Part shown: one piece after another, positions 15,366-35,900 of the stretch | How positions within the stretch are numbered: the first letter of the stretch is position 1 | How the letters are laid out: every line of letters begins with the position of its first letter | Source: an uncultured virus (IMG/VR IMGVR_UViG_3300037963_003458) | Taxonomy: Duplodnaviria > Heunggongvirae > Uroviricota > Caudoviricetes | Reading direction: 5' to 3' (one strand) | Virus record (IMG/VR): IMGVR_UViG_3300037963_003458 | Length of the DNA: 64,000 nt | Position numbers and translations under genes: made by a program | Notes under the pieces: model-generated | The model's input: only the letters and a program-made list of their open reading frames with translations | Database searches by the model: none | What the model was told of the DNA's origin: nothing

Positions 15366-15753
15366 TATAGGTACTCTCTTCTATAGAAATTGTAAAATAA
15401 CCCTCATTAACTTCATCTTCACACCACGCTTTACTGATAGATAAATTTACTACCTGTCTATCATCTTCCCAAAGCCATCCATTAAACTGATCCATAATGC
15501 TTTTAGCATAGTTATCAACATCGGCTCGTGGAGTTAGTAGTTTGGTTGTTTTGGGTTTTGTAATGTAACATTCAATCTCTACAGAAAGAAGAGCGCTAGA
15601 AGGCTCAAGGCCTCCTAGCTGCTCTTCTTTGAGTAAGATCATATCTTCACGGAACTTTTTATACGGACCAGAATAGTACGTATGTCCCATGCGAGTTACA
15701 CGCGGTCTAGATGCAGCAATGGGGTTTATATTGAACCGCCATTGCTTTAACAT
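15358..15753 (-). CDS. RusA-like Holliday junction resolvase
   Basis: Motifs ASRPR, DVDNYAKSIMD and DDRQVV. Confidence 0.85.
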   Translation of the reverse strand: MLKQWRFNINPIAASRPRVTRMGHTYYSGPYKKFREDMILLKEEQLGGLEPSSALLSVEIECYITKPKTTKLLTPRADVDNYAKSIMDQFNGWLWEDDRQVVNLSISKAWCEDEVNEGYFTISIEESTYNE

Positions 15754-17702: not shown

Positions 17703-17961
17703 GTAATATCCTTAGCGATAAGATCATTCCAGAAGGTATGACATGTACGTAACCTCCAGAATCACCGTCAATTATTAGTGTATCACAAATAGCGATAAAA
17801 TCGTCTGTTCTCTTTAATAGCATTCCAACTGATCTAACTTTTGAAGGACCGTTGTTTACAGCCTCTTCAATATCTTCATACGTTTGCCAGTCAGAACCTC
17901 CACTACAAACTGCATCTAACCAATCAACACAAACAATTGGAAGATCTTGAGGATTATCCAA
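17689..17961 (-). CDS. Phage hypothetical protein (VxWxDA...SVG type)
   Basis: VDWLDA, RSVGML and IPSGMI; TTG start inferred at the RNAP stop. Confidence 0.55.
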   Translation of the reverse strand: MDNPQDLPIVCVDWLDAVCSGGSDWQTYEDIEEAVNNGPSKVRSVGMLLKRTDDFIAICDTLIIDGDSGGYVHVIPSGMILSLRILHEKA

Positions 17962-20389
17962 ACAAGTATTCAGAGTCTCTGACTCTTTCAATGTCGAGAT
18001 CTCCTTGTTCTGGTAAAGACCTTCCAACTGGACCGATGACATTCTCGATGTCTTTCTTAAATTCTTCGAGTAAGGGATTTTTGTGTATTTCATAAAATGT
18101 AGTTACTAAAGCCTTTCTCATCAGTGGAACATAAGAACAGTGACATCCATAAGAATCGTGAATCATAGAGAAACTAAACACACCTAAATCAAACATCATA
18201 TTAATTGTGAGCATCATATGTGCAGCATCAATACTATGAATGTAATTAGGAGGTATAGCTTGAACAGCTAAAGAAGGAGCAGGATTTTTAGTATCCTCTA
18301 CAATACTTAGCTGTAATCTAGAATTTCTATATAGATGTGTATCAAGAACTTTTATTCGCTCTTGTGTGTATCTGTTAATAACCTTAAATCCAGTAGGCGT
18401 TGTCCATGATGCGTGTTTACCATAAGAAGCGCACAATTCTGTAAGATCTTGAAGAAAAATCTTACCTGCATTAGCAGATTGTAAAGCGCCATCTAAAGAC
18501 AATCTAATTAAAGAAGAAAGTTCATTGACAGCTTGAACTTTATTTGATGGATCTTCTACCCAATTCAAGTGACCTTCTTCTCTGCAATACTTTCTAATGC
18601 CGTGATCTGTAATGCCATAAGCATCGCACATAGTAGAGCGCTTAACAACTTTTCTAGGTATTCGTTTATCCCAATACTCATAGAAAATTTCATGCCATTT
18701 TGTTTCACCAGTTGCGCAAATAGATGTAGCGGTGTCTGCAACAAATTGATACAAATCACCTGGAACATCTGTAGGAGCAACGTTAACTTTCAAAGCTAAT
18801 TCAGTGTCTCTCATAATAGCAGCCCAATGTTGACTACCATTGCAAGAACCATCCAATTGAACGGGAATACTTGAGTAACCAGTTTCCAAAGCAGTTACTA
18901 AATCAAAAGCAGCTGCCAGTCTTTGAAAACTTGGGTTCTTCTTTGTAGTTTCGTTATCCATCCAATTAGTATAAGTATAAGGATCTTTGTTAATGTCCTT
19001 GAAGTGATCCAAATTATCTTGAACCCACAAAACACGGTCATCAAAAGAAACCTTATCACTAGCTGGGCCAGAACCAAAATCAACGCCATCAAAACAATTA
19101 GCTACATGTACCATTAACCAGTACATACCTTCTTTTGTAACTTTACAAGGAGTAGCAAAATGAATAAGACCTTTATCAAAGTCACCACTTTGAGGGCTAA
19201 GCATTTCTGTTACAGTATAGGCTCTACCTCTAAAGTCAAGAGTCCAAGCATGGTAAAAGAAATTTACCTTAGCTAATTTACGAGCCAAGGTAAGACGCAG
19301 CTCCATTTGAGCACGCTTTTGAACTTCTTTGTACCACTTACCATACTGTTCTTCTTTATCCTTTTTCCAAGCTAGTTTTTCTTCAGAGCTTCCGTATTCA
19401 GGAAACTCTCTAAGAAATGTAAAGTCCTCGTAGCTGTAAGAAGGCATGTTACATTCAGAAGTATTGCGATGATAGATAACATCCATTACTTCCAAAACTC
19501 TGCTGTTTACAGCCCACTCAGTTGTTTGAAGAGTATTCAAAGCAGTCAAAGATATTTCACTGGCTTTGCTAATGCCTCCGACTGTTGGCTTTCTTCTGTC
19601 CAACATAAGGCAACCGCCTGCTATATCTTCTGTGTGAGGTATAGGAGGAACAAGCATTGGTCTGTAAAGCATACGTAGAAATTGATAGTACTCATGTTTT
19701 CTAATTAGTTCAAGTAGAATATGAGGATCAATGCTAATTTCGTTGTAGCTTCTAGATTTACCACCTTGTTTGTAACTCTTCTTTTCTACGTTAACAACTT
19801 TACGAGCTTTTGCTACATTCAAAAGACAAGTACCAAGATACAGTGTTTGCTTTTTGGACCAACTTTGAATAGCATCACATCTCTTTGTGAAGCGATGAAA
19901 CTTCTTTTTATCCCATCGTTTTGTGTAACGATTAAGATATTTGTATTCTTCTGAATTAGCTAGTTTTGCATATTTAAAAGACGCAATAAGTTTTGCTTCT
20001 TTACCAATACGATAAGCAATAGAATAAAAGTTATCTACGCCATTAGCGTGAATTTTCTTTCGTATATCTCGGCTGTCTACCAAGTCTTCTACTAGTTGAG
20101 AGATGACTATAGCTGCCAATGTTTCTGAGGGAATCAAAAACAAAGCTGGAGCCCACTCTCGCATTCGTCCGTCTTTATCAATCTCTTCTTTTACATCATC
20201 AAAAGATTGAGAACATTGTCGGATAAAATCTTGGATAAGATCTTGTTCAGCAGCACACTCTGTTTTACAGTTATTGTAACTCCTCCAATACTTATTCAAG
20301 GATTGGTCAGTTAGAGTTTCTTCAAGATGATGCTGATAAGTAAATCTAATTTCTCTATCTTTGTCAGTCAAAGAATTCCAATGTTCCAT
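17954..20389 (-). CDS. Full-length single-subunit T7-type DNA-directed RNA polymerase (RNAP-1)
   Basis: 811 aa with PMLVPP, DFRGRAY, motif A LDGSCNGSQH, motif B RKVVKRSTMCDAYG, PPNYIHSIDAAH and motif C IHDSYG; C-terminus YLFG. Confidence 0.97.
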   Translation of the reverse strand: MEHWNSLTDKDREIRFTYQHHLEETLTDQSLNKYWRSYNNCKTECAAEQDLIQDFIRQCSQSFDDVKEEIDKDGRMREWAPALFLIPSETLAAIVISQLVEDLVDSRDIRKKIHANGVDNFYSIAYRIGKEAKLIASFKYAKLANSEEYKYLNRYTKRWDKKKFHRFTKRCDAIQSWSKKQTLYLGTCLLNVAKARKVVNVEKKSYKQGGKSRSYNEISIDPHILLELIRKHEYYQFLRMLYRPMLVPPIPHTEDIAGGCLMLDRRKPTVGGISKASEISLTALNTLQTTEWAVNSRVLEVMDVIYHRNTSECNMPSYSYEDFTFLREFPEYGSSEEKLAWKKDKEEQYGKWYKEVQKRAQMELRLTLARKLAKVNFFYHAWTLDFRGRAYTVTEMLSPQSGDFDKGLIHFATPCKVTKEGMYWLMVHVANCFDGVDFGSGPASDKVSFDDRVLWVQDNLDHFKDINKDPYTYTNWMDNETTKKNPSFQRLAAAFDLVTALETGYSSIPVQLDGSCNGSQHWAAIMRDTELALKVNVAPTDVPGDLYQFVADTATSICATGETKWHEIFYEYWDKRIPRKVVKRSTMCDAYGITDHGIRKYCREEGHLNWVEDPSNKVQAVNELSSLIRLSLDGALQSANAGKIFLQDLTELCASYGKHASWTTPTGFKVINRYTQERIKVLDTHLYRNSRLQLSIVEDTKNPAPSLAVQAIPPNYIHSIDAAHMMLTINMMFDLGVFSFSMIHDSYGCHCSYVPLMRKALVTTFYEIHKNPLLEEFKKDIENVIGPVGRSLPEQGDLDIERVRDSEYLFG

Positions 20390-20420
20390 AGTTCTCCTTG
20401 TTTGTTGAAGGGGATGTACT

Positions 20421-20445
20421 CTCTTAGACTCAGGCGTTAACGCCC
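20421..20445 (-). promoter_or_regulatory. Phage promoter-like repeat, class A, copy 2
   Basis: Exact copy of the 7566-7590 motif, directly upstream of RNAP-1. Confidence 0.75.
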
Positions 20446-20481
20446 AAAAGGGCTCCCAAGAATAGCTCTTGGGAGCCCTTT
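20446..20481 (-). terminator. Intrinsic terminator
   Basis: Perfect stem AAAGGGCTCCCAAGA/TCTTGGGAGCCCTTT after the DUF932-like gene. Confidence 0.75.
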
Positions 20482-20484: not shown

Positions 20485-21345
20485 TCAGACCATTTCAAGA
20501 GCTGTAGCCATGACCTTGTTGGTCTTAGCAGCTCGAAGTCCAATTGCGCAATCTACATAGCGACGATCCATATCAGGCTTACGGCCTCGCTTTGCAAGAT
20601 TGTGTTGAATATAATTAGTGACCGCATTTGCGCCAAGCCACTTAGAGGGTCGACATCCCTGTTCTACTTCTCGATCAAAGATATCGTTGCAGTACTGAAG
20701 ATAAGCACTGATCTTAGCAGCTTCGTTCTGAGCCTTGCTGTACTCGCCAGTCAAGTTCATAGCCATAGGAGCTGCCTTCTTCCAGAGAGATTCAAGCCAG
20801 TCCTTATTAACATCAGCGTTTACAAGAGGAGAAACGGTTTTACGCCAGTTACTCTCTTGGACACGAATGCCGTTAAGGTTTTCCTTGAGATCTTCAAGCT
20901 TTTGCTGGAAATCTCCGTTATGACGAATCTTGAACCAACTGTCGTTCTTCTTAGCAGAGCGGAAAGCCATGCTAAGCTGGTTAGAACAGCAAAGTCTAAA
21001 GGTTGTACCCATAGTAGTCACAGAGCTGGTTCCGTCAAAAGAGTTGACAAGAACCATATGAGAGTGTACGGGGTCATTCCCAAGGTCCATCTGAGAAATC
21101 TCAGCAGTATACATCATCTTCTTACCGCTCCATCGAGTTTCGACGGGCTTGTTAGTAACGATGCTGACAAGCTCTTCAGCTTCTGCGGGCTGAAGGATTT
21201 CGTAGTTGATACCGACGACACCTAGAGGTTCTCCAGTGTCAGTACGATAAGTAAGACAGTGAGAAGGGTCGTTAATGATTCCGTTGTCGCCATCATGGCC
21301 TTCGCAGACGCCAGTGATGGGGTGAGTCTTTGCTACAGTAAACAT
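20485..21345 (-). CDS. DUF932-family phage/plasmid protein
   Basis: RTDTGEPLGVVG.NYEILQ, LVNSFDGTSS, RLCCSNQL, IRH and W...NAVTNYIQH. Confidence 0.8.
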   Translation of the reverse strand: MFTVAKTHPITGVCEGHDGDNGIINDPSHCLTYRTDTGEPLGVVGINYEILQPAEAEELVSIVTNKPVETRWSGKKMMYTAEISQMDLGNDPVHSHMVLVNSFDGTSSVTTMGTTFRLCCSNQLSMAFRSAKKNDSWFKIRHNGDFQQKLEDLKENLNGIRVQESNWRKTVSPLVNADVNKDWLESLWKKAAPMAMNLTGEYSKAQNEAAKISAYLQYCNDIFDREVEQGCRPSKWLGANAVTNYIQHNLAKRGRKPDMDRRYVDCAIGLRAAKTNKVMATALEMV

Positions 21346-21357: not shown

Positions 21358-21370
21358 AGTGATAGTGAAT
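21358..21370 (-). promoter_or_regulatory. Promoter-like repeat, class B core (TTCACTATCACT)
   Basis: Shares the TCACTATCAC core with 28121, 31422 and 31885; lies just upstream of an RBS. Confidence 0.45.
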
Positions 21371-24304: not shown

Positions 24305-25054
24305 TGTTATTCTCCAATAGTGCCTTAGTTGAATGAGGGAAATAAGTTTCCATCGCGTTTTGAACAGCAGAAGCGTAAGGCCAGCATTCTGCTTGCGCGT
24401 TCTTGTCAATACGAAGCTTGACAAAACGAGCCCAAGCCATGAGAGAGCCTGACCAAATCCACTCGGTCATCATTGCAAGTGGTTGCGAGATGCGGGCTTG
24501 TTCTGGGCAAACACCTTCACGGCTAAGGCTACGATAGTCAGCCCGCCATTCGCGAGCTTGACCCTTGTACATTTCAAGATATTTGCCATCAATAGGCACA
24601 GCATCATCAAAAGTAGAACCTTGCTTCATGTTCTCAGGACGCCGCCGCCATGAATCAGGAACAAAATAAAACGGCGGGNNNNNNNNNNGACATAACGTCG
24701 GCTTACTTCGTTCCAAGTAAAACCAATCTGATGCTTGACAAACTGACGAGCAAGAAAGATTGGGGCTTGGAAACGAAACTTTAGAAAGCAGTGAGCAAAT
24801 GGCGACCAGTGATCGTGACGAGCAAGGTAGTTAAGAAGCTTGCGATCTTTTTCTTGAAGAACCTGCACATCTTCTACGTGATAAGAACATCCACTAAGAC
24901 GTTCCATAACTTCTTTATCAAAACCCCATTCAGTTTCTTTATCAAAGGAAACGCGAGCTGCATTGCATACTTCAAGATCAGAACCCATACGGTCAATATA
25001 AGTAACAGGCTCATACTCAACAACTTCAGTACCGTCAGTCTTGCGTAATCTCAT
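24297..25054 (-). CDS. thyX: Flavin-dependent thymidylate synthase (split by an N gap at 24679-24688)
   Basis: NAARVSF, HWSPFAH, ARQFVKHQ...NEVSRRY, PEQARI, RIDKNAQAE; the two track ORFs join across the gap. Confidence 0.92.
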
Positions 25055-26252: not shown

Positions 26253-26798
26253 TTATGTCCATTGAGTTGCCATTGCATTAGCAATGCCTGTATATGTAGT
26301 AGATCTAATTTTCCATCGATCTTTACTAGGAGGTAACTTATGTATACGAGCTTCTCGCCCTTCTACAATATTTGTAGGTTCTAATTTAGGAAGATTTTTA
26401 AGCCAGAGACAAGTAGCTTTAGTTTCACCGTGGCCAAATTGCCAAGGTTGAATAATTTGATCAGGTTTTCTAATTTTAGTAGATATAACAGAGATAGGAT
26501 TTTCTAAAGCAATCTTATCAATAGGAGCATCTAAAAGAAGTCTAACAAAATCAAGGGCTTCTTTTTGTTCTTGTTGCTTATCTTTAAACCAACGCGCTCC
26601 TGATACAGCTAAATGTGTGCAAGGAGGATGAGCAATCATTAAATCCCAACCGTTATCTAAAATATCTTTTACATCACCTTTATAGTGAGGTCCCTTTACG
26701 TCAGTCTCTAACAGATCGCAAGAAACAGCGTAATGACCTTCTCTTGTAAAAGCATCTCGAACTCTACCACTATATTCACAAGCAACTAAAACTTTCAT
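26253..26798 (-). CDS. Short phage DNA cytosine methyltransferase-like protein
   Basis: VLVACEYSG, IAHPPCT, ENP, QPWQFG and K.TCLW. Confidence 0.8.
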   Translation of the reverse strand: MKVLVACEYSGRVRDAFTREGHYAVSCDLLETDVKGPHYKGDVKDILDNGWDLMIAHPPCTHLAVSGARWFKDKQQEQKEALDFVRLLLDAPIDKIALENPISVISTKIRKPDQIIQPWQFGHGETKATCLWLKNLPKLEPTNIVEGREARIHKLPPSKDRWKIRSTTYTGIANAMATQWT

Positions 26799-26850
26799 GC
26801 GTTTTCCTCATCAAATAAAACCTGGCATTCATCGCAACGTTTACCGTCAA

Positions 26851-27249
26851 TCATTGGTTGATTGCAATCTTTACAGGAGACTGGGTAGCGTTCTTCATCG
26901 CACATTTTACTTTATTCCAATACTTTACAGTAGCAGACTTTTTAAATCCGTTTGGCCCGCCGTTCCAAATGCGAGCCATATCTTCAAAAGTAGGGACTCT
27001 TCCAAGACGCTTTTCTGTTGCGTATCGTTTCATATAAGCACGAAACACACGCTTAGAGTATTCTAGATCAGCGCATTGAGAGTATTGACCACCGATGTTA
27101 GCATCTTGCCAGCAGCCTCGGTGAATTTGAAGAGGACCCAAAGCAGCGCCATTGTCACCACGAATAGGACCAAGCTTCCCTCCTGTTTCAACCATGTGAA
27201 TTGCATGAATAAGATCAGCAATCTTGCGATTCAATAAGTTCGTCGTCAT
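26851..27249 (-). CDS. Invertebrate-type (destabilase-like) lysozyme
   Basis: AIHMVET, GPLQIHRGCWQDA, ARIWNGGPNG and YWNKV; start placed at MTTNLL. Confidence 0.75.
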   Translation of the reverse strand: MTTNLLNRKIADLIHAIHMVETGGKLGPIRGDNGAALGPLQIHRGCWQDANIGGQYSQCADLEYSKRVFRAYMKRYATEKRLGRVPTFEDMARIWNGGPNGFKKSATVKYWNKVKCAMKNATQSPVKIAINQ

Positions 27250-27433
27250 CGTCTGAGTACTCATCGTAGTACTCATTGAGGTCTGAGTATTGAGACAACA
27301 TAGATTCGATGTCATCAAAGTTATCAGCAGAAGAAATATTTTCATTTGTAATCCTAAATAAAAGTTCATCCATATGATCTGGATTACTAGCGTCAAGACC
27401 ATAGGAGTGCATTAGTTCTTCAAAGTCATTCAT
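27215..27433 (-). CDS. Hypothetical acidic protein
   Basis: 72 aa, D/E-rich. Confidence 0.5.
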   Translation of the reverse strand: MNDFEELMHSYGLDASNPDHMDELLFRITNENISSADNFDDIESMLSQYSDLNEYYDEYSDDDDELIESQDC

Positions 27434-27644
27434 TGACGTAATAAATCCCTTCGTCGTTCATTCGCATTCTGGAAGCAGATGGAGTTGCCATCTTTTCTTG
27501 AATACCCTTAGCTGCTGCGCTAAGATCCTGGCCAAGGCCAGCAACAGTATTACAACCTGCCAGAACAAATCCAATAACAATAGCAATAAGAAACCAAAGG
27601 CCAAAGCCCAAGATTTTACGTTCTCTGTCAGTACACTTTAACAT
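27426..27644 (-). CDS. Entericidin A/B-like lipoprotein
   Basis: Hydrophobic signal, lipobox LAGC, then NTVAGLGQDLSAAAKGIQE; AAGGA RBS. Confidence 0.75.
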   Translation of the reverse strand: MLKCTDRERKILGFGLWFLIAIVIGFVLAGCNTVAGLGQDLSAAAKGIQEKMATPSASRMRMNDEGIYYVNE

Positions 27645-27662
27645 TATAAATTCCTTAACATG

Positions 27663-27706
27663 TAGATCAAAAAATAGGTCTCCCCTAGCCGAAGCTAGAG
27701 GAGACC
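27663..27706 (-). terminator. Intrinsic terminator with UUCG loop
   Basis: GGTCTCCTCTAGC-TTCG-GCTAGGGGAGACC followed by TATTTTTTGATCTA. Confidence 0.8.
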
Positions 27707-27905
27707 CGTGAACGTTGTGACAGGATTTACTTATTACCTGCATGACTTGACCAAAGTAGGCAAAACAAGTCAGCCATTGCATCCTTCTGCGTCGAAGGTA
27801 TCTCTCACCGATAGGCTCTGAGATAGACGCGACTCATGCAATGCACCTTTGCGCGCTTTAGTTCACGCTTCAGTTACACAACAACACTGAGAGCTACTCA
27901 GTGCT
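27707..27905 (-). ncRNA. Candidate multi-stem structured ncRNA
   Basis: Nested complementary pairs 27707-13/27861-67, 27775-82/27836-43, 27789-93/27826-30, 27799-804/27820-25, 27743-49/27766-72 and 27721-24/27737-40, in an intergenic gap ending at a terminator. Confidence 0.5.
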
Positions 27906-27907
27906 AC

Positions 27908-28066
27908 TTACGAGTTAACAACAATAGCGATCTTCTTAGCAAGCTTCGAGTCATTCTTCTCGACAGCCTTCTGAAGACGATCCTTGATCTTGTCCTTCAT
28001 CGCTTCCGGAGTGTTCGGGTTGTTGAACACGCCCCAGATAACGTGGAGAGCAGTATCCTTGTTCAT
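27908..28066 (-). CDS. Small hypothetical protein (MNKDTALH...)
   Basis: GAAAGGA RBS; downstream of a class B motif. Confidence 0.6.
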   Translation of the reverse strand: MNKDTALHVIWGVFNNPNTPEAMKDKIKDRLQKAVEKNDSKLAKKIAIVVNS

Positions 28067-28120
28067 TTTCATTTCCTTTCGGAGATGGAAGTGACGATGC
28101 CTCACGGAAACATTCCGCGA

Positions 28121-28139
28121 CGGCAGTGATAGTGAGGAT
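28121..28139 (-). promoter_or_regulatory. Promoter-like repeat, class B
   Basis: ATCCTCACTATCACTGCCG. Confidence 0.6.
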
Positions 28140-28218
28140 TGCAAAAAAGCAAACAAGCCTCTCAGCAGACCACGCCAACATGACGGGCCAAGAGAGAGTA
28201 TTACGACAGTCCCTATTG

Positions 28219-28262
28219 AAAAGAAGGGAGCAGCCTGGCGATATGCCAAGCCGCTCCCTTCT
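28219..28262 (-). terminator. Intrinsic terminator after the minimal RNAP
   Basis: AGAAGGGAGC...GCTCCCTTCT stem followed by TTTT. Confidence 0.75.
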
Positions 28263-28267
28263 GTTTA

Positions 28268-29722
28268 TCAAGCAACGCCAATGCATCTTCCGATTTCAGG
28301 CATTGCTCTGTTGTTGTTGACAGGGAACTTGTCAAGGTTGGAGTGGATATGTACGTAGCCATTCTGCACAACGGTACGAAGTCTGAGAGCATCGTTGATG
28401 GTGGTAAAGAAAGCGTCATGCACGACGCCAAGCACACCAGAGAAGTTAAGAATGACGTATCGAACAACAGCAGCGTCCAAGCTGTGGATCATGTTGGGCA
28501 TGGCTCCAGCAGCTCCGACCATGTTGTTGTCCTGCTCAAACTGACTGATAAGCCGTAGAGCAACAAATTCGTCCGGTGTAAGCCAGACAAACTTGCTTGA
28601 GTCCACGTTCATACAAGCAGAGTACCACTTGATGCATTCTTGTCGAAGGACTTTGATGCTAGGAAACTTATCCAGCAGAACTTGCTGACGTTCCTTGACG
28701 AAGGACTTCAGTTCCGTATAAGTGAACTGCTTGGTTCCAATATGAATGGTTGCTTCATTATCAGGAACAATCTTGCCTTCATCGTCGATCTCGCCGTCAC
28801 CGCCATGATCCAACCAGTAGTTAGAAGCAATGCCGCTAGCACCGCTGCCATATCCGGTAAGCATGACGATAGTCTTTGCAAAGGAGCGAGCCTTGCGTCT
28901 GTTGCCTTCGAACAGCAGCTCAGCAATCTTGCCTTCGTCTGCAACCAGCATGTAAAGATCGCCACTGGTGTCAGACTTGACAGCGTTGACAACGCGAGCA
29001 AGCTCTTTGTCACGCATCAGCAAAGCCATGTGCTGAAAGCCACTGCAAGTAGCGTCTTGCTCAAGCAGATAATCAGTCATGCCAGTCTTGCTGATTTCAA
29101 TAATAGTAAGCGCTGCTCTGACAGCCATCCAATCAAGTGCGCCATCTCCGTCAAAGTCAGGAGTTGCAAGATAAGCAGTAGCCTCTTCGACAGTAGTGGC
29201 CCAGCCTTCATGCTTGAAGACCTTAATCATGTAAGCATAGCCTTCGGGCTCAACGCGATACTTGTCAGGAGCACTGAGAGCTGCTCTGCTGAGCCTGTTG
29301 TTTTGCAGGCTGCCCCATTCACCAGACATGTGATAAACGCGTCCACGCCAATCGTAGAACACGTCACAGTAAAGCAAGCAACCTCTTTTGCGCCACATGC
29401 CAAGAAAAGTACGCTCAATAGCGTCTTGCCACTTAAGTCGTTGTTCTCCGCCCTTGGGGAAGATGCTGGAAATATAGTCCATGAAAGAATGACTGACTCG
29501 AAAGCCTTGCTTAGAAAGCTTATCAAGTGCTTTGTAATGATCAGAGTCAGTCTTAGGTGCAAATGGACTGCGGCTGATCATAGGCTTGTTGGAGCCAGGA
29601 GCCACAGGAGTAGGAGAAGGAAGGGCCTTAATGAAGACACGTCCATCGTCTTCAAATCCAGTATCGTAATCAGGGTTGACAAATCGGTTGTAGGCAATGG
29701 ACGAATGTTCGTTAAGAATCAT
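28268..29722 (-). CDS. Minimal single-subunit RNA polymerase (RNAP-2), catalytic core only
   Basis: 484 aa with DWRGRVY, motif A QDATCSGFQH, GDLY, motif B RSFAKTIVMLTGYG, WLTPD, PNMIHSLDAA and motif C VHDAF. Confidence 0.9.
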   Translation of the reverse strand: MILNEHSSIAYNRFVNPDYDTGFEDDGRVFIKALPSPTPVAPGSNKPMISRSPFAPKTDSDHYKALDKLSKQGFRVSHSFMDYISSIFPKGGEQRLKWQDAIERTFLGMWRKRGCLLYCDVFYDWRGRVYHMSGEWGSLQNNRLSRAALSAPDKYRVEPEGYAYMIKVFKHEGWATTVEEATAYLATPDFDGDGALDWMAVRAALTIIEISKTGMTDYLLEQDATCSGFQHMALLMRDKELARVVNAVKSDTSGDLYMLVADEGKIAELLFEGNRRKARSFAKTIVMLTGYGSGASGIASNYWLDHGGDGEIDDEGKIVPDNEATIHIGTKQFTYTELKSFVKERQQVLLDKFPSIKVLRQECIKWYSACMNVDSSKFVWLTPDEFVALRLISQFEQDNNMVGAAGAMPNMIHSLDAAVVRYVILNFSGVLGVVHDAFFTTINDALRLRTVVQNGYVHIHSNLDKFPVNNNRAMPEIGRCIGVA

Positions 29723-29934
29723 AGGTTCTCCAAGTAGTTAATCAGTTTCAGAATATCTGATTGATGCTGTTTAATTTGATCTTTAACCGCTTTGATGACA
29801 TCCTCTTCGGACATCTGTATAGCAGTATAATAATCATCAGAATCTTCAGCATTGACAATACGCGATTCTGCGCAACAGCCACAGCCAGGATCGTATTTGA
29901 CAAGTTGATTGTTACCGTTGATGTAGTATTCCAC
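29719..29934 (-). CDS. Hypothetical protein
   Basis: 71 aa with GCGCC; coupled to RNAP-2. Confidence 0.55.
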   Translation of the reverse strand: MEYYINGNNQLVKYDPGCGCCAESRIVNAEDSDDYYTAIQMSEEDVIKAVKDQIKQHQSDILKLINYLENL

Positions 29935-30122
29935 TAGCCATCTTCTCCGTTAACAGTAAGAATTTCATCAGCCCAGTACATCTGAATGAAAGTGCAAAGC
30001 AGGTTTTCTTCCCAGTCACTGAGACTGCCTGGAGGCGAGTTCAGAAGTACAGTAGCGATGTTGTACATCTCGATAATTCCGTCTGACATGTGAGTTGTGG
30101 TTTCTGGATTCATTTCGTACAT
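29934..30122 (-). CDS. Hypothetical protein
   Basis: Start placed at MYEMNP behind a GAAAGGA RBS. Confidence 0.55.
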   Translation of the reverse strand: MYEMNPETTTHMSDGIIEMYNIATVLLNSPPGSLSDWEENLLCTFIQMYWADEILTVNGEDG

Positions 30123-30123
30123 G

Positions 30124-30405
30124 TCAATCCTTTCGATAAAGCTGTACGGTGTTGTTGATTTGCTGTGCGATTGCATCACACAAATCGGCGCTTGACCAAT
30201 CGCATTTGTGTTTGTTCAAAGCATGTATGAGAAGATTCATCGCAGTTCCAGAAATCTCTGCAAGAGTACCGTCTTGAAAAGCTTGTGCTGCACCCCAGCA
30301 ATTGATCCAAGCAGCGTGTGTAGGAGACTTCTCCCTCCATTTTGGATCGTTGTCATACCAAGCTTTAAATGCATTTGCAACAGCTTCAGTATTAATGATG
30401 TTCAT
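30124..30405 (-). CDS. Hypothetical early protein
   Basis: 93 aa with GGAG RBS. Confidence 0.6.
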   Translation of the reverse strand: MNIINTEAVANAFKAWYDNDPKWREKSPTHAAWINCWGAAQAFQDGTLAEISGTAMNLLIHALNKHKCDWSSADLCDAIAQQINNTVQLYRKD

Positions 30406-30501
30406 GTTGTCTCCAGTGAATAAAGAGGCCCGTAACGTGGGCTAGACGGCTCAACATAGTGCCAGTCCACAGAGCGGTGGGGTCTAATGCTGGACTTGTT
30501 A

Positions 30502-30930
30502 TTAGGCCACCCAGACATCTGAGTTGCCTTGGAACATCAGGATCTTGATGGACTCGTGAAGAATTGCATTCACGTAAGTTTCGTAGCGAACACTGACATC
30601 CAGAAGAGGCAATCCAACAGATACGCTGTAGACGCTGGCGTGGTGTCCTTCTGAGAGCAATTCAAACGCCGTCAGAGTGGATTCCAGGTCGTTGAGCGTT
30701 GCTATGCTAAGCTGGATCTGTTCTGCGTTCCATGCTTCGAAATCCGGATCGTCGTCCATGCGACGGTTCTTGTCCTCTTCAATTGTCATCTTCTGGTACT
30801 TGACGGCCTTCTTCAGTTCTCTAATGATGTAGTCAAGAAATGACAGCATGTTGTGGTTGGATGCGTTGAACATCCGTTCGCATGACTGTCCTTCTTGATT
30901 GGAAGTGTCGTAAAGCATGTCCATACTCAT
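30502..30930 (-). CDS. Hypothetical early protein
   Basis: Start placed at MSMDML behind an AAGGA RBS. Confidence 0.6.
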   Translation of the reverse strand: MSMDMLYDTSNQEGQSCERMFNASNHNMLSFLDYIIRELKKAVKYQKMTIEEDKNRRMDDDPDFEAWNAEQIQLSIATLNDLESTLTAFELLSEGHHASVYSVSVGLPLLDVSVRYETYVNAILHESIKILMFQGNSDVWVA

Positions 30931-30934
30931 AATA

Positions 30935-31405
30935 TCAATCCTTGTGAATGTCACCATCTTCGGTGAAGAGCAAGAAAGTATAAGCATTGGTCTTACGGCT
31001 ACAAGCCGCAAGGTAAGCGCCAGTACAAAGAATGTCATTAGATCGGTTAAGCTTGGTGAACCACTTGCCGTCTTCTCTGATAAAGAGGATGGTAGCCTGA
31101 CCGGCTCGCACATGAGCGTCAAGCCCAGGCGCTTCTAGATTATGCTGAGACAGGCAAAGCTGCCTCATCGATCTGATGAAGCGACACTCAAACATGAGAG
31201 CCTGCTTTTCAGTCATTGTGTTGTTACGACGAACACCCTTGAGTGCAGAATTGAACCTGCCAATCTGCTCGTAGACAGCATCTGACAGTGAGCCGCCGGG
31301 CTCAAAGCCTTCGATGTCATCGACTCCAATAAGCGTTGAAGACATGGTGTCGGACAGAAGAGCCTTGAGAAGTTCTTCTGCACTGTTGAGAACGTAGTTA
31401 GTCAT
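30935..31405 (-). CDS. Hypothetical early protein
   Basis: Start placed at MTNYVL behind an AAAGGA RBS, downstream of a class B motif. Confidence 0.65.
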   Translation of the reverse strand: MTNYVLNSAEELLKALLSDTMSSTLIGVDDIEGFEPGGSLSDAVYEQIGRFNSALKGVRRNNTMTEKQALMFECRFIRSMRQLCLSQHNLEAPGLDAHVRAGQATILFIREDGKWFTKLNRSNDILCTGAYLAACSRKTNAYTFLLFTEDGDIHKD

Positions 31406-31421
31406 GTGGAATCCTTTTGTT

Positions 31422-31444
31422 CGGCAGTGATAGTGAAGATGTCC
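31422..31444 (-). promoter_or_regulatory. Promoter-like repeat, class B
   Basis: GGACATCTTCACTATCACTGCCG, preceded by a GC hairpin at 31449-31484. Confidence 0.65.
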
Positions 31445-31489
31445 GAAAGCAGCCCAAGCCATATTGCGGTATGGCTTGGGCTGCTGGTG

Positions 31490-31675
31490 TCAGATAGCGG
31501 TGGGTCCGCTTACGCGGTCCTTCCAGGCCCGCATGATCTGCTTGGCCTGCTTGGGGTTTTGGAGCAGTTGTCGGCTCAGCTCTTGGCTGAGCGCGTTGAG
31601 AGCCTGCTGAAGTGTGGAGCCTTCCTTGCGGATAGGCTGTGACTGGAGAGTGGTTGCTGCGTAGAAGTTTCGCAT
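31490..31675 (-). CDS. Hypothetical early protein
   Basis: 61 aa with AAGGA RBS. Confidence 0.55.
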   Translation of the reverse strand: MRNFYAATTLQSQPIRKEGSTLQQALNALSQELSRQLLQNPKQAKQIMRAWKDRVSGPTAI

Positions 31676-31684
31676 GGTTGTTCC

Positions 31685-31861
31685 TTAGATGAGGATGTTG
31701 ACCGTGGTGATGAGTACAGCGCAGATGCAGCAGATGATTCCGCCGCCGAGACCGAAGAGGATTGAGGTGTATACCAGTGCCTCAAGTCCTGAGTCGAATC
31801 GATCTCTTCCATTTTTGTCCCGACAGATGCAATTCATTCGTTTCTTCAGTTTGTTTAGCAT
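31685..31861 (-). CDS. Small early membrane protein
   Basis: MLNKLKK... followed by a long hydrophobic Cys-containing segment. Confidence 0.55.
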   Translation of the reverse strand: MLNKLKKRMNCICRDKNGRDRFDSGLEALVYTSILFGLGGGIICCICAVLITTVNILI

Positions 31862-31884
31862 AGTGTTTGCTTTCTGGTTAAGCT

Positions 31885-31902
31885 GTGATAGTGAAGATGT
31901 CC
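31885..31902 (-). promoter_or_regulatory. Promoter-like repeat, class B
   Basis: GGACATCTTCACTATCAC, an 18-nt identity with the 31422 copy; preceded by a hairpin at 31905-31939. Confidence 0.65.
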
Positions 31903-31953
31903 CGTCGCAGCCCCCCGCCGTAGTGGCAGGGGGCTGCGAGTCCAGGTGCGTCG

Positions 31954-32358
31954 TCAGGACATCCAGACGACGATGGGGTGGTGGCCGTCCTGGACGAACC
32001 GCCGGAGGTCGGAGGGCCGCAACCAACCGCCGGGCTTCGGAGTGCCGTCAGGGTTGGTCAGCTTGGGGAACTCCGCCAGCTGCTCGCCGCTGACGTAGTC
32101 GATCACGCGGACGTTCTTGAACGCCCACGGCATCTTCGCCTTCTCGCCTCCCTCCGCGAGCGCCTTGCGGATGCCGCTGCGGGCAGCTCGCAGGATGTGC
32201 ATGGCCGCGTCGTAGTGGCTGTCCTGGTCGTCCATGCCCGCAACGCAGGAGATGAGCAGCTTGAGGTCCTCGCGGTCCATGTGGTCCCAGTCGTCAGCGA
32301 TGAGCGAGGTGGTGGCTGCGAGGACGGCTTCGTTGTTGAATGCGGTGCGAATGGCCAT
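31954..32358 (-). CDS. First early gene, very GC-rich, hypothetical
   Basis: MAIRTAFNNE... with GGAG RBS; third codon positions are almost all G or C. Confidence 0.7.
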   Translation of the reverse strand: MAIRTAFNNEAVLAATTSLIADDWDHMDREDLKLLISCVAGMDDQDSHYDAAMHILRAARSGIRKALAEGGEKAKMPWAFKNVRVIDYVSGEQLAEFPKLTNPDGTPKPGGWLRPSDLRRFVQDGHHPIVVWMS

Positions 32359-32359
32359 G

Positions 32360-32825
32360 ATGGCTCCGATCTGCGCTGTTGCGCTGTAGTAGAAAAAGGG
32401 CAGGTACGCACATGCGCACGCCCGACCGAGACGGGTCCTTGGACCCACGAACCACGGAAAACCTACGAAAACACCACAAATTACCGACCGGGATACCGGG
32501 GGGGATCCTAGAGCCTGCACCGCAGGNNNNNNNNNNATTTCTGACCCCTTTTTCCTACGGACCCTCTGGTCGTAGCCTAGATATAGGTCTGATATACCAC
32601 GGGGCCGGGGTAAACAGCTATGTATAAGCGTGGGGGTCGATAGCCACGACTGAAATAGGGACGATCTCCCGCTCGTACCAAAGGTAATATCCCTTTGTAG
32701 AGAGGGAGGAGGTCCTAACTCAGTCTTAATTCTATACTATACAGATATTAACCTCTAAGTCCTATCTTTGCGCTAAGCGCTTAAGACTCTAAGTAACCTA
32801 GTACTAAGATAATAACTTTGTTCCC
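32360..32825. other. Non-coding region, probable genome terminus or packaging region
   Basis: Lies between the last virion gene and the first early gene, with G runs, an N gap and an abrupt switch in base composition. Confidence 0.55.
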
Positions 32826-32850
32826 CTCTTAGACTCAGGCTTTAACGCCC
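32826..32850 (-). promoter_or_regulatory. Phage promoter-like repeat, class A, copy 3
   Basis: One mismatch to consensus; points into the putative terminus region. Confidence 0.7.
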
Positions 32851-32861
32851 TTAAAAGCAAC

Positions 32862-32893
32862 AGGGGGCTCCCCTTGCATACGAGGAGCCCCCT
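32862..32893 (-). terminator. Terminator-like hairpin after the giant gene
   Basis: AGGGGGCTCC...GGAGCCCCCT stem followed by GTTGCTTTT. Confidence 0.65.
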
Positions 32894-32909
32894 AAGTTAC
32901 TTATTATAA

Positions 32910-35900
32910 TTACTCTAAAGCCCTGAGAATACCCGGTGATGGTCCTTCTCTATCCAGTCCTTTGTCTAACGTCCTCTCAGGAGCCCGTGAAGGCTCTCTA
33001 CGAGGCTGTCTCTCTGGAGGGGTAGGCTGGGGCCTATCAGCTCCTAAAGGCCGTAGAAGCCCTACTGAGGTTTCTTCTACAGGAGGACGGTCAGTGGGGA
33101 AAGGAATCACAGCATCTAATGCTTCTTGCTGGTCCATACTTGGTAATCCATAACCTCTTCGACGAAGACCTCTAGTAGAACCATAACGATTTCTACTACT
33201 TCCTCGTCTTGGTTTGCTCGTAGTTATTGGGTTAGTTCCTAATAAGGCTCTTACTCCTAATTGTACTAATTGAGCAAAAGGTAGCGGAGCAGCCTTTGTT
33301 AGTAATTCCCCGGAGTTTTGCCAATCTCCTTCAAAAGCGGCATTTATACCTCTTTGGAAATCTTTAAAAGAACGAGCTAACATAGCCACACCAGGAATAC
33401 CCACACCACCTGAAGTTCCATAACGGTCTTCATACCCTGCTAAGAAATCAGGATCATCAACCAGACGCCTTAAATGCTCAACAGCAAAATTAGCTAAGAT
33501 TGGTTGAATAACAGTTCCAATACTTCCAAGGAAGGGTAAACGCTCTGCTACCATTAGTCCTGATCCTACAGGATCTTCAGACCAACGTTCTACAATATCA
33601 TCAACAGATTCTCCTCGTACCATGTCTCCCATTATAGCGTAATATACTTCAGCTATAAAGAAAGGAATAATAAAAGAAGATAATCCAACTAAGCCACCCA
33701 AAGCTAAATGAGTTTTTGCATTGTGCAAAGCTAATGCTGGGAACTGGCCCAGAGTAGCAATCATTTCTTGGAGAGCTGATTTTGGAATTTGTTTAGTTAG
33801 CATCTGAGGTTCTACGTTTACCTTTTCATTAAGATATTGCATAACACCTAGAACCTGTTGCGAAGCTCTCATGACACGTCTAGCCATAGGAAGATTTCCA
33901 GCAATAGCTAGCTTTCTAGTATTGTCAGTAAGCTCATCCCAAGTAATTCCATACTCATCTACATATTTTACAAGAACGTGTCTAAACGCTTTAGCATCAT
34001 CAACACCGGCTCCTATAATAGTAAAGATCCCTAAATCTCTTTGAATCCCATTTTTTCTAGCTAAGTCTTTAATTTCTTTAATAGACTTTCCTTGAGATTC
34101 TTCTACGAATTTTACAAATTTCTCTTCATTAGAAACCATCCTCTTTACATCTCGTAAAGCACGATTAGCTCCAATTAACCTATTATATCGGTTAATAGTC
34201 TGGAAACCAGTAGTAGCAATGGTTCTAAGAAAGTTGTCCATTCCGCTTAAAAGATTTAATTTACTTCTTTCTGCAGGAGCTTCTTCAAACTCTGCAATAT
34301 CGCTTTCAAAGTATCTACCAGTTCGAATACCGATGTTTCTTTTATTCAAAGTGTAGTTAGACATGTTTACACTCTGATAACCTCTAGAGCGAGCTTCTCT
34401 ACTAAGAGGTCTAAAGAAATCAGCAATTGAAGCAATATCTCCCATTAACACAGCTCTAGGAATAGACTTAACAACTGTCATTACTGATTCATTAGTACTA
34501 GAGAAAGCCCAGTTACCAGCAGAACCTAAAGTTACACCAAATCTAGTAAGGTGGTGTGCTGCTTCAGCTGTTCCACTAGGTTGTTCAACGCCTTTAGGTC
34601 TTCTATTCAAACCTACATCATATTGATCTTCAAGGCCTTCTAATTGAGTAAAAAACTCTTGCCGATCTTTTTCAGTGCTAAAAGCTACCAAACCTTCAGG
34701 AGTAGGAACTCTTCCGTCAGTTTGAGAATCTCTATTAGCTGATGTTCTTAAGACTCTAATCATATCTTTAATAGATAAATCTTGAGCGTGCATAACAGCA
34801 CCATTTACATAGGTATGAACATCCTCTACTAACTTACCTGAGAATAAAGAAGAGTTAAGAACAACTGGATCAGTTTCTTGAAACTGCATCCATTCCTTAG
34901 AAGCCTTCCACTCAGGAGGTCTAAAACGAGGATCAGGGTAATGCATCATATCTGATTTTAAAGAACCGCCCTGCTGCCATTTTTCTACTAATTGATAAGA
35001 ATCAAAATAACCAAGAGGTTTATCAGTATCTACTTTTATGGTAGGCTTTTCTCCAGCCCTTTCAGCTCTAGCATCTAAAAGATGCTGAAGTTTTTGAGAA
35101 GAAGGACTCAAAGAAGTATCATCTATTAAACCACTGGCTCCTCTAGAATAGGACCAATCTAAAGGTTTGTTATCTCTTACAGCTGGTTTAATGAACTTCC
35201 TAAGAAGAGTTAATCCCGGTACAGAACCAAATAAATTAACTTTGACTTCTTCACCAGTAGCAGGATTAATTCCTGTATCTGTTGTCATAAAATGTCGAAT
35301 CATACTTTGAGTCCACACTACTTTATCATAGTCTGTCATATCATCAAAGTCAGGAGTCTTCATTTCATCAAAGATGCCAGATAGAGCACCAAAAACATCT
35401 TTATACTCTTTACTCCATTCAAGTATTTCTCTTTCACAATCTATTTTAGGTTTATTCTTATGCCATAGAATACCAATATCTTCCATTATCCCAAAACTAA
35501 CTCTTTCACGAGGAAGTTCAGTAAGACTACGAGGCATTAAATTATCTCTTTGGGCTTGTAAATAGTCTTGTTGAACGTCGTCTACTACAGTATTAAAAGT
35601 AATAGGATCGTCCATGTATTGTCTATTTAAAGCAAAAGGTAATTTAGGTCGACTTGCAAGATCTGTTAAAGTAGACTGACTAATAGTACCTACTCCAGCG
35701 GCAGCTGTAGCAAAGTTCTGTAGAATAGCACCCTTCCCAAACATTAGATCTCTATATTGAAGTAAACCAGCAATAGCTTTATCACCTAAACGACTCTGAA
35801 AAATAGGAATCTCTTTAAATAAAGCTACCCGCATTTCATCAGTCATCGGAACATCTGAATCAGGAGCTTTAGTTGCTTCTAAAATAAATAAAACCTTATC

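Follow-up and report, generated by a model that had tools for sequence, protein, structure and literature searches.

How does an RNA polymerase of the T7 family find its start sites when the canonical promoter modules are missing? The question is raised by RNAP-2, which is encoded in a 64,000-nt stretch of DNA (the window) from an uncultured, marine T7-like phage. The window also encodes a second enzyme of this family, RNAP-1.

Identification and fold of RNAP-2

The two polymerase genes are the following:

28268..29722, minus strand: RNAP-2, an ORF of 484 aa with DWRGR at residue 124, DATCSG at 223, RxxxK..YG at 279-292 and HD at 435-436
17954..20389, minus strand: RNAP-1, a full-length T7-like RNA polymerase of 811 aa

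RNAP-2 matches the Pfam family RNA_pol (PF00940) with E 4.6e-20 (72.3 bits, cut-off 22) and phrog_414 with E 2.5e-34, the latter covering just profile positions 500-673 of 816. The match to phrog_2206 is marginal (E 0.0098; E 7.3e-4 for the RNAP-2 of the related record G001). Profile-profile alignment with hhalign against a profile of T7 RNAP and three RNAP-1s gave a probability of 99.6. No GenBank record of a cultured phage covers at least 80% of RNAP-2, and the best matches there are 24% identical and lie in the C-terminal two thirds of full-length RNAPs.

Regular expressions located DWRGR, motif A (DATCSG), motif B (RSFAKTIVMLTGYG, at 279) and motif C (HDAF, at 435). The hhalign alignment pairs D223 with T7 D537, R279/K283/Y291/G292 with T7 R627/K631/Y639/G640, and H435-D436 with T7 H811-D812; Y291 and H413 are the equivalents of T7 Y639 and H784. 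The catalytic motifs are intact, as the first-pass annotation of this DNA had stated. The AF2 model of RNAP-2 is confident (pLDDT 91.5, pTM 0.90) and gives E 3e-16 in a Foldseek search. When superposed on T7 RNAP, as that annotation had proposed, residues 24-481 fit T7 residues 257-882 with a VIA-align Z of 29.4 (rmsd 4.1 A, 429 residues aligned) and show the right-hand fold of the polymerase domain.

Parts of the enzyme that are missing

N-terminal domain: Profile-profile alignment places no part of RNAP-2 on this domain of T7 RNAP, and all alignments to T7 RNAP, structural or by hhalign, start at T7 residue 257 or later. The N-terminal promoter-binding domain RPOL_N (PF14700) has no match in RNAP-2 and a weak match in RNAP-1. 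Because the domain (T7 1-~260) is absent, RNAP-2 lacks the AT-rich recognition loop and the intercalating hairpin, and DSSP found no beta-hairpin in residues 1-60 of the model.

Thumb, fingers and C-terminus: In the same profile-profile alignment, RNAP-2 is without about 45 aa of the T7 thumb, T7 residues 582-612 of the fingers and about 23 aa at the C-terminus.

Specificity loop: From the W of WxTP to the PN of PNxxHS, RNAP-2 has 28 residues, compared with 51 in RNAP-1, 52 in T7 RNAP and 44 in N4 gp16. T7 residues ~740-764 of the loop (T7 739-770) have no counterpart and stay unaligned in hhalign. The first-pass annotation had described an N-terminal domain that is largely absent, a specificity loop that is mostly deleted and a segment of about 28 aa versus about 51 in RNAP-1; the counts agree exactly, and the alignments bear out the two deletions.

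Conservation of the short form

The short length is kept in the family: 36 of the 39 closest homologues (39-90% identity) have 473-497 aa. DWRGR at 124 and residues D223, R279, K283, Y291, G292, H413, H435 and D436 are invariant in 37 sequences of 38-90% identity, and the alignment has 45 invariant columns, among them all catalytic residues. The RNAP-2 family forms a clade of its own (SH-aLRT 99). Its sister is a group of 520-606-aa proteins that are also loop-less (W-to-PN 16-22 aa), and it lies within a short-RNAP clade of 18 rows (support 100) with N4 gp16 in the other half of the tree. This was a quick IQ-TREE analysis of 37 rows with SH-aLRT support only and some long branches, so the placement is provisional.

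These data bear on whether RNAP-2 is what remains of a duplicated polymerase gene, inactive or in decay. As a remnant might be, it is the shorter of the two polymerases by 40%, and the 312 positions that align with RNAP-1 are just 27% identical. Homologues down to 39% identity have kept the short length, the invariant columns include every catalytic residue, the predicted fold is confident, and the tree makes RNAP-2 a separate old clade and no recent copy of RNAP-1. We regard decay as extremely improbable; as far as sequence evidence reaches, it is refuted. The first-pass annotation had raised the case in which all homologues are full length and this copy alone decays, and nearly all of the closest homologues are themselves short.

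Early genes around RNAP-2

The RNAP-2 gene belongs to a GC-rich early region and is ~2.8 kb away from what is probably the left end of the genome. Four families of small early proteins are conserved together with it:

27908..28066, minus strand: F3, early protein of 52 aa with MNxxTxxHVxWGVxNNPxTP, in 13 loci
29719..29934, minus strand: F8, early ORF of 71 aa, C-terminal helix and CGCC motif; its stop codon and the RNAP-2 start codon overlap by 4 nt (ATGA)
30502..30930, minus strand: F5, early protein of 142 aa starting with MSMDxxY, in 9 RNAP-2 loci including the distant clade
30935..31405, minus strand: F7, early protein of 156 aa with the C-terminus ...FTEDGDxH, in 7 loci of the close clade

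In the close clade and in the record L018, the RNAP-2 gene is immediately followed by F3. F5 is a candidate cofactor of RNAP-2. Its AF2 model is confident (pLDDT 93) and has no PDB match at E <= 0.001 (best E 0.19). F5 was the one early family compared with N4 gp2, and hhalign detected no similarity (probability 0.1). F5 is acidic.

DNA contigs from four runs were compared with the region. Those of two runs, from the best-matching sample, cover 26500-33500 piecewise, with a depth that is low and even; none of the listed pieces spans it all, and they break off near 32375-32615, at a run of 10 N in the window. Among the RNA runs, none matched window positions 27800-32500.

A strand-specific motif in RNAP-2 loci

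A motif of 11 nt, tTCACTATCAC (class E), recurs in RNAP-2 loci; its copies are mostly intergenic and strand-specific. Across 20 RNAP-2-bearing sequences, 253,677 nt in all, there are 95 sense-strand copies of CACTATCA and no antisense copies (chance expectation ~4 per strand). Most class E copies lie 3' of terminator hairpins and 10-50 nt 5' of start codons. Such hairpins and copies in the window include:

28222..28262, minus strand: GC-rich hairpin with a T-run (terminator-like) directly after the RNAP-2 stop, read from the sequence, as its loop of more than 8 nt escaped the hairpin scan
28126..28135, minus strand: class E core TCACTATCAC, between the RNAP-2 stop (133 nt away) and the F3 gene
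31427..31436, minus strand: class E core TCACTATCAC, with hairpin 31450-31483 before it and the F7 ATG 21 nt after it
31885..31894, minus strand: class E core TCACTATCAC, with hairpin 31907-31937 before it and, 24 nt after it, the ATG of a 58-aa membrane-like ORF (31685-31861)
21359..21368, minus strand: last class E core TCACTATCAC, 14 nt before the ATG of a 286-aa gene (20485-21345)

The 286-aa gene precedes RNAP-1, and the last copy has syntenic counterparts in G001 (12641) and L002 (9505). In the window and G001, class E is limited to the left ~12 kb, save for one intragenic copy in G001. Some CACTATCA copies encode conserved residues of RNAP-2 itself (VNATIT, FFTTIT) and probably arise by coding coincidence.

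A position matrix was built from 70 sites outside the RNAP-2 coding sequence. T stands at -1 in 64 of them and C follows the core in 61, and the positions from -45 to -3 carry no information, with no -35 element. The sites were gathered by exact match, which inflates the apparent invariance of the 8-mer. TCACTAT of class E equals positions -8 to -2 of the T7 promoter phi1.1A.

The motif goes with the polymerase gene. In each of the 14 distinct loci long enough to tell, a class E copy follows the RNAP-2 stop by 2-251 nt, even where protein identity is as low as 31%. It is unchanged in L018, whose RNAP-2 is 41% identical, and invariant over phages of 38-60% GC, which probably have different hosts. 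Neither in the window nor in G001 did we find a third motif class able to serve RNAP-2, and sigma70-like promoters show no excess at 27400-33000 (3 found, 5.4 expected).

The motif is not exclusive to RNAP-2 phages. G003 (L087), a complete 70-kb phage genome, is a real counter-example: of its 8 copies of CACTATCA, all on one strand, at least 6 are intergenic, and it has neither a detectable T7-family RNAP nor related early proteins. Because of G003, a similar core may serve another system, possibly a host RNAP with TATCAT as its -10 element. Three scans for viral contigs with paired TCACTATCAC gave 6, 35 and 21 stretches, and none of the 62 has a homologue of RNAP-2 or RNAP-1. The contexts of 12 were inspected (the other 50 were counted only), and most of these 12 are tandem repeats of the CACTAT hexamer, isolated pairs or apparent chance matches. 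L047, a 7.7-kb fragment, has a promoter-like look. The scans missed G001, in which the spacing is outside the gap ranges used.

RNAP-1 and a second motif class

RNAP-1 is present in the window and in all four other records that reach far enough downstream (G001, L002, L013, L018) among the sampled lineages. It was not seen in L021 and L023, which hold just 6.7 and 8.5 kb downstream of RNAP-2. A longer T7-like motif of ~27 nt (class L) begins at RNAP-1:

20415..20447, minus strand: promoter-like motif of class L immediately 5' of RNAP-1; sense strand GGGCGTTAACGCCTGAGTCTAAGAGAG
7560-7592, 32820-32852 and 54245-54277: other class L copies

The upstream half of class L is altered in L018, where RNAP-1 is just 60% identical; class L co-varies with RNAP-1. 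The site at 32820-32852 lies 300 nt from the right end.

The wider context is T7-like, with a primase-helicase, DNA polymerase, portal and terminase (the last 36-40% identical). The primase-helicase is of the T7 gp4 type (13659-15365), and the RNAP-2 gene is ~13 kb away from the replication genes. A giant ORF at 32910-47264 encodes a virion-type protein of 4784 aa. We considered it as a hidden RNAP and rejected it, as it has no Pfam or PHROG match and neither DxDGD nor HD[SA][FY]; the test is crude and leaves room for a novel polymerase.

A proposed transcription scheme and its alternatives

The explanation that we favor, with modest confidence, is that RNAP-2 is an active, extremely reduced DNA-dependent RNA polymerase which acts as the early transcriptase, uses class E and then hands over to RNAP-1. 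The left genome end would enter the cell first. It would present an array of short units, each with a terminator hairpin, tTCACTATCAC, a leader of 10-50 nt with a Shine-Dalgarno sequence and a small ORF. RNAP-2 would use tTCACTATCAC as a compact promoter, and the analogy with T7 (TCACTAT at -8 to -2) would put the start at the A of the final CAC. It would transcribe the left ~11-12 kb including its own gene, in a positive feedback. Read-through from the last class E site would let RNAP-2 transcribe the RNAP-1 gene. RNAP-1, with its intact N-terminal domain and specificity loop, would then take over from the T7-type class L promoters of ~27 nt, the first of which stands before its own gene. That RNAP-2 reads class E is suggested by their co-occurrence and by the logic of the layout. 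Melting without an intercalating hairpin would presumably need a small early cofactor or DNA that opens easily. Since class E sites and terminator hairpins precede the RNAP-2 gene, some other polymerase or a delivered protein must act at time zero. The first RNAP-2 molecules may be products of leaky or host transcription that the autogene loop amplifies, or may arrive with the virion.

The first-pass annotation had seen no promoter-recognition modules in RNAP-2 and had proposed that it works with a partner among the neighbouring early ORFs, on ssDNA or hairpin templates, as a primase or on RNA templates. The conserved early families may include such a partner. A lack of promoter recognition fits poorly with an invariant, strand-specific, mostly intergenic 11-nt motif that shares TCACTAT with the T7 promoter; class E points to sequence-specific initiation on a compact promoter and not to non-specific work of these kinds alone.

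Whether RNAP-2 needs help at that promoter is a separate matter. A tentative possibility is that it is self-sufficient and that its 484 aa, which include no N-terminal domain and no specificity loop, are enough to locate and melt a duplex promoter of 11 bp; the whole loop-less clade (480-635 aa) would share one ancestral core promoter. If so, specificity would be read by the conserved palm and fingers and not by the fast-evolving loop, and RNAP-2 would be the smallest autonomous promoter-specific DNA-dependent RNA polymerase. In a bolder variant, RNAP-2 would also be delivered by the virion to start infection.

Rather unlikely, in our judgment, is that another reader serves class E, either host RNAP at an unusual -10-only promoter or an injected factor. 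RNAP-2 itself would be promoter-blind and, like N4 RNAPII, recruited by an ssDNA-binding early protein to opened or single-stranded DNA for middle transcription, which corresponds to the main reading of the first-pass annotation. The absence of the AT-rich loop, the intercalating hairpin and the specificity loop agrees with such a role. So do the position of class E sites before the RNAP-2 gene, where another reader must act first, the several small early families conserved with RNAP-2, and the CACTATCA-type intergenic motif in G003, which has no T7-family RNAP. According to PMC4496689, N4 RNAPII by itself binds ssDNA only and depends on gp1 and gp2. The motif speaks against this reading: there is no -35 element, 61 of 70 sites end in C although sigma70 requires T there, and the sequence stays the same over phages of 38-60% GC with probably different hosts. 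Moreover, RNAP-2 would be left with no motif class in the window or G001, and the acidic F5 is unlike N4 gp2 and matches nothing in the PDB at E <= 0.001.

We consider it quite improbable that virions contain RNAP-2 and inject it together with the DNA, as a miniature N4 virion RNAP that would transcribe class E units at time zero and help to pull the genome in. Class E units begin at the extreme left end, before phage protein synthesis is possible, no excess of sigma70-like promoters is found there, and the 4784-aa virion-type protein shows no RNAP signature by Pfam, PHROG or motif search. On concatemers, late transcription from the class L site at 32820-32852 could run on into the early region, but terminator hairpins would limit such read-through. 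The RNAP-2 gene lies in the early region, away from structural genes, and an autogene loop fed by leaky transcription accounts for the layout without packaging. A role in making replication primers or origin transcripts, or in copying RNA templates instead of making mRNA, is less probable still, and we give it little weight. T7 RNAP and mitochondrial RNAP prime replication, and RNAP-2 lacks the canonical promoter modules. Nevertheless, the window encodes a T7 gp4-like primase-helicase and a DNA polymerase, which weakens the primase role, and RNAP-2 sits at the very left end, far from these genes. Y291 and H413 fit ordinary DNA-templated use of rNTPs, and the class E array would be left unexplained.

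Comparison with known polymerases

RNAP-2 shares with T7 RNAP the right-hand fold, the T/DxxGR, A, B and C motifs and the equivalents of H784 and Y639. It differs in size (484 versus 883 aa), in the absence of T7 1-~260, in the shortened thumb, the missing fingers residues 582-612 and the deleted specificity loop (28 versus 52 aa). Its putative promoter has ~11 nt, compared with 23 nt in T7, and it coexists with a second, full-length RNAP. RNAP-2 would be a test case for promoter specificity without the canonical readers.

N4 RNAPII is likewise a reduced T7-family enzyme with an early-region gene in a multi-polymerase cascade. PMC4496689 describes it as one of the smallest family members (673 aa, two chains), with a truncated N-terminal domain and thumb and a minimal promoter from -7 to +2, a precedent for a truncated enzyme that uses a compact promoter. 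It is a heterodimer of gp15 (269 aa) and gp16 (404 aa), whereas RNAP-2 runs from DxxGR through motif C in one chain. The W-to-HS segment of gp16 is longer (44 versus 28 aa), the first ~157 residues of gp15 have no counterpart (probability only 1.8), gp16 falls outside the short-RNAP clade in the provisional quick tree, and the N4 middle promoter is AT-rich, unlike TCACTATCAC. As a conserved single chain, RNAP-2 lowers the size limit of the family by ~190 residues relative to N4 RNAPII and reveals which parts are dispensable in nature: the N-terminal domain, most of the thumb, the fingers flap and the specificity loop. Should the pairing with tTCACTATCAC hold, nature would have supplied a compact pair of polymerase and promoter, directly usable in expression systems and for in vitro transcription. 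The lineage combines two single-subunit polymerases with two promoter classes and with an early region that is GC-rich and densely insulated, a scheme undescribed for T7-like phages. A search of the openly accessible literature, including passages of PMC11880802, yielded no account of such an enzyme or motif.

The polymerase domains of the mitochondrial enzymes Rpo41 and POLRMT also superpose on RNAP-2 (Z 24-26). These enzymes keep the intercalating hairpin and the specificity loop, and they are far larger (1100-1350 aa) with additional N-terminal domains. According to PMC4496689 (Table 1), they rely on separate melting or specificity factors, and this dependence might, by analogy, be a model for how RNAP-2 opens DNA.

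RNAP-2 retains the catalytic core of the T7 family

The first-pass annotation had described RNAP-2, a minimal RNA polymerase of 484 aa (28268-29722, minus strand; Pfam RNA_pol, E 4.6e-20), as having intact catalytic motifs but no promoter-recognition modules. All of its listed elements were confirmed. DWRGR begins at residue 124 and DATCSG at 223, with RSFAKTIVMLTGYG at 279 and finally HDAF at 435. As for length, the segment from the W of WxTP to the PN of PNxxHS is indeed shortened, with 28 residues in RNAP-2 versus 51 in RNAP-1 (the full-length polymerase of the same window), 52 in T7 and 44 in N4 gp16. The match to phrog_414 is limited to the C-terminal part of that profile.

In a profile-profile alignment of the RNAP-2 family with T7 and three RNAP-1s (probability 99.6), the catalytic residues pair one to one. 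By the same alignment, RNAP-2 lacks the entire N-terminal domain, T7 582-612 (fingers) and T7 ~740-764 (specificity loop), its thumb is shorter than that of T7 by about 45 residues, and its C-terminus has about 23 residues fewer. Enzymes of the canonical factor-independent type have both an N-terminal domain and a specificity loop; RNAP-2 has neither.

The AlphaFold2 model (37 sequences) is confident, with a pLDDT of 91.5 and a pTM of 0.90. Superposition, the check suggested in the annotation, placed it on T7 RNAP 257-882 (Z 29.4, rmsd 4.1 Å, 429 aligned). Yeast and human mitochondrial RNAPs gave Z 21-26 and N4 mini-vRNAP Z 20. Motifs and fold both place RNAP-2 in the T7 single-subunit RNAP superfamily.

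Homologues and lineage

A large protein collection gave 45 matches, the closest 39 of which are 39-90% identical. A decaying copy among full-length homologues had been named as the case against a functional minimal enzyme; instead, 36 of these 39 have 473-497 aa, and the remaining three (279, 418 and 434 aa) are fragment-like. The 36 homologues and the window protein were aligned without the three fragments or the six remoter matches (P0040-P0045). The 45 invariant columns of this alignment take in all catalytic residues as well as a G-x-C-x-G conserved near the C-terminus. When 1.84 billion representatives were searched exhaustively with a profile, 4853 proteins reached E <= 0.001 and 29 reached E <= 1e-30. 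Four clusters have ~480 aa; next comes a sister group of 520-610 aa that is loop-less too (W-to-PN 16-22).

We placed these proteins in a quick maximum-likelihood tree (37 rows, SH-aLRT only, long branches flagged, the careful search being unfinished). All RNAP-2 family members form one monophyletic group (99), whose sister is the 520-610 aa group (94), and both lie within a clade of 18 short RNAPs (100). RNAP-1 groups with T7 and further full-length enzymes, and N4 gp16 is placed elsewhere. This provisional placement speaks against a recent duplication of RNAP-1 and against membership in the N4 RNAPII lineage. Length, conservation and tree together therefore indicate an old, separate lineage.

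Genomic setting

The window belongs to a T7-like podophage with every gene on the minus strand, including those for portal, ribonucleotide reductase, exonuclease, DNA polymerase, gp4-type primase-helicase, terminase and tail proteins. Terminase is 36-40% and RNAP-1 26-29% identical to the counterparts in cultured Autographiviridae; hence, a close cultured relative is absent.

Features of the window
17954-20389, minus strand: RNAP-1, full-length, 811 aa
22357-23884, minus strand: five tRNA genes (Leu-TAA, Arg-TCT, Met-CAT, Ile-TAT, Lys-TTT), between RNAP-2 and RNAP-1
26851-27402, minus strand: destabilase-like lysozyme (Pfam PF05497, E 1.2e-8), just downstream of RNAP-2; conserved in 11 loci
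27426-27782, minus strand: small lipoprotein-like membrane protein, just downstream of RNAP-2; conserved in 14 loci
32910-47264, minus strand: giant ORF, 4784 aa, between terminase and genome end
47303-51109, minus strand: giant ORF, 1268 aa, between terminase and genome end
24679-24688, 32527-32536 and 54551-54560 (10 nt each), 51211-51239 (29 nt): N runs

The first of these N runs breaks the thymidylate synthase gene. Four of the five tRNAs decode codons ending in A/T, in keeping with the AT-rich late genes. Neither giant ORF has a match in Pfam or PHROG; both presumably encode internal or ejected virion proteins. The metagenome locus L023 has a giant ORF (at least 2165 aa) at the equivalent position.

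The two IMG/VR records G001 (69.5 kb, CheckV 100%) and G002 each carry an RNAP-2 of 484 aa and, about 10 kb downstream of it, a full-length RNAP-1. RNAP-1 is also present in metagenome loci L013 and L018, in which at least 7 kb downstream of RNAP-2 are covered; it was not found in the 6.7 kb covered in L021 or the 8.5 kb covered in L023. In G001, RNAP-2 lies 2.9 kb from the record start, and the final 330 nt match window 32872-32537, adjoining the N run at 32527-32536. This probably puts the physical end of the genome near 32,500 and RNAP-2 about 2.8 kb inside the left end.

From this terminus to just beyond RNAP-2 (window 27750-33250), GC is 0.46-0.68 versus 0.36-0.40 elsewhere, and it rises toward the same end in most relatives profiled (L001, L012, L014, L021). 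In two runs of one sample, DNA contigs tile the GC-rich part and its flanks at equal low depth. Host-like codon usage of early genes may account for the island, as may structure in its DNA or RNA.

Alongside RNAP-2, four small early families are conserved: F3 (52 aa, encoded next after RNAP-2), F5 (142 aa), F7 (156 aa) and F8, a CGCC-motif family whose stop and the start codon of RNAP-2 overlap, both here and in several relatives. T7 lysozyme binds and regulates T7 RNAP; by analogy, the destabilase-like lysozyme might act likewise here.

Two classes of promoter-like motifs

Class E, the short early motif, has the core TCACTATCAC. Class L, the long T7-like motif, is a 33-nt repeat reading GGGCGTTAACGCCTGAGTCTAAGAGAG on the sense strand.

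Motif copies in the window
31885-31894, 31427-31436, 28126-28135, 21359-21368, minus strand: class E cores (4/4 on the sense strand)
20415-20447, minus strand: class L, intergenic, directly upstream of RNAP-1
7560-7592, 54245-54277, 32820-32852, minus strand: class L, intergenic

Across 20 RNAP-2-bearing sequences (253,677 nt), the 8-mer CACTATCA has 95 sense-strand copies and no antisense copy, where roughly 4 per strand are expected by chance; L021 alone has 19 class E copies within 8.4 kb. Most class E copies lie 12-25 nt after a GC-rich hairpin with a T-run and about 10-50 nt before a Shine-Dalgarno sequence and start codon. A copy follows the RNAP-2 stop by 2-251 nt in all 14 distinct loci with enough downstream sequence, including clades at 31-50% protein identity. 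A position matrix was built from 70 sites outside the RNAP-2 coding sequence (25 in the gene or near an end were dropped). It has T at -1 in 64/70 and C after the core in 61/70, and no conservation from -45 to -3; thus, class E has no -35 element. TCACTAT is shared exactly with T7 promoter phi1.1A, where it occupies -8 to -2 (+1 as annotated in the T7 record). In the window and G001, class E is limited to the left ~12 kb, plus one intragenic G001 copy. On the minus strand, the first early ORF (ATG at 32358) is preceded at a distance of 25 nt by TTCTACTACAGC (32383-32394). This sequence aligns with an L012 class E site at the same place but matches only 5/10 core positions; it is possibly a first promoter that is weak or has diverged.

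The 15-nt core of class L is identical in all four copies, and the motif recurs at syntenic G001 sites. In the window and G001, class L starts at RNAP-1. In L018, whose RNAP-1 is 60% identical, the motif before RNAP-1 retains TCTAAGAGAG and differs in its upstream half, the pattern that would be expected for a T7-type promoter co-evolving with the specificity loop. After the 4784-aa ORF, a strong terminator hairpin (32855-32894, minus strand) is followed immediately by the copy at 32820-32852, which lies about 300 nt short of the probable right end of the genome. Transcription from this putative promoter would cross the concatemer junction into the early region, a layout that resembles T7 phiOR.

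A possible two-stage cascade

The sequence data are most simply read as a cascade in two stages. RNAP-2 would start transcription at the compact class E promoter and transcribe the early units, including its own gene, up to and into RNAP-1, which would then drive replication and structural genes from the long class L promoters. That class E stays invariant while the enzymes are only 31-41% identical would fit readout by conserved core elements rather than a variable loop. Since RNAP-2 has no intercalating hairpin, duplex opening probably needs the help of either a cofactor or DNA topology.

N4 RNAPII, subject of a 2018 structural paper, is the nearest working likeness: it is reduced, early-encoded, uses a minimal promoter and is part of a cascade, as proposed for RNAP-2. 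It has two chains (673 aa in total), whereas RNAP-2 is one chain of 484 aa; N4 gp16 keeps the loop segment that RNAP-2 has lost, and the two are in different parts of the tree. N4 gp2 has no similarity to F5, the sole early family compared. For the likewise truncated N4 RNAPII, a minimal promoter from -7 to +2 is reported (PMC4496689). The accessible literature (subscription journals apart; including parts of PMC4496689 and PMC11880802) yielded nothing on a T7-family RNAP of ~480 aa, on a pair of T7-family polymerases in T7-like phages or on the class E motif. RNAP-2 is of interest to RNA polymerase and phage specialists as well as enzyme engineers.

Points against the pairing

A look for RNA runs containing the sequence found none. 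The RNAP-2 gene is itself situated behind class E sites and hairpins, so the cascade leaves its first-round expression unexplained. Sigma70-like promoters are not in excess at the left end (3 found versus 5.4 expected), and upstream of the first ORF there is nothing beyond the degenerate class-E-like site. Possible sources of the first RNAP-2 are leaky transcription that an autogene loop amplifies, an unrecognised host promoter or virion delivery; no RNAP signature was found in the 4784-aa virion-type protein.

The exclusivity of the pairing was tested by scanning viral contigs for paired class E cores, and the outcome weakens the case for it. RNAP-2 was found in none of the 62 loci recovered; the 12 whose contexts were printed are mostly hexamer tandem repeats or chance pairs, and the other 50 were counted only. 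A complete 70-kb phage, G003 (L087), has eight one-strand copies of CACTATCA (reverse-complement coordinates 9226-16279), at least six of them intergenic, before small ORFs. Five copies read CACTATCAT, within which there is a reasonable -10 hexamer, and three have GTAGTG about 10 nt upstream. In G003, neither a T7-family RNAP nor related early proteins were detected, and its array seems to belong to an unrelated promoter system whose core is similar. Such a core can thus serve another polymerase, and co-occurrence alone is no proof of pairing.

In distant clades, a second motif, TCACTAGGGGAA, adjoins class E cores (L021 6419 and 8360; L019 1652 and 3198). It resembles a T7/T3-type promoter with a GGG start and may be the promoter used by the second polymerase of those phages.
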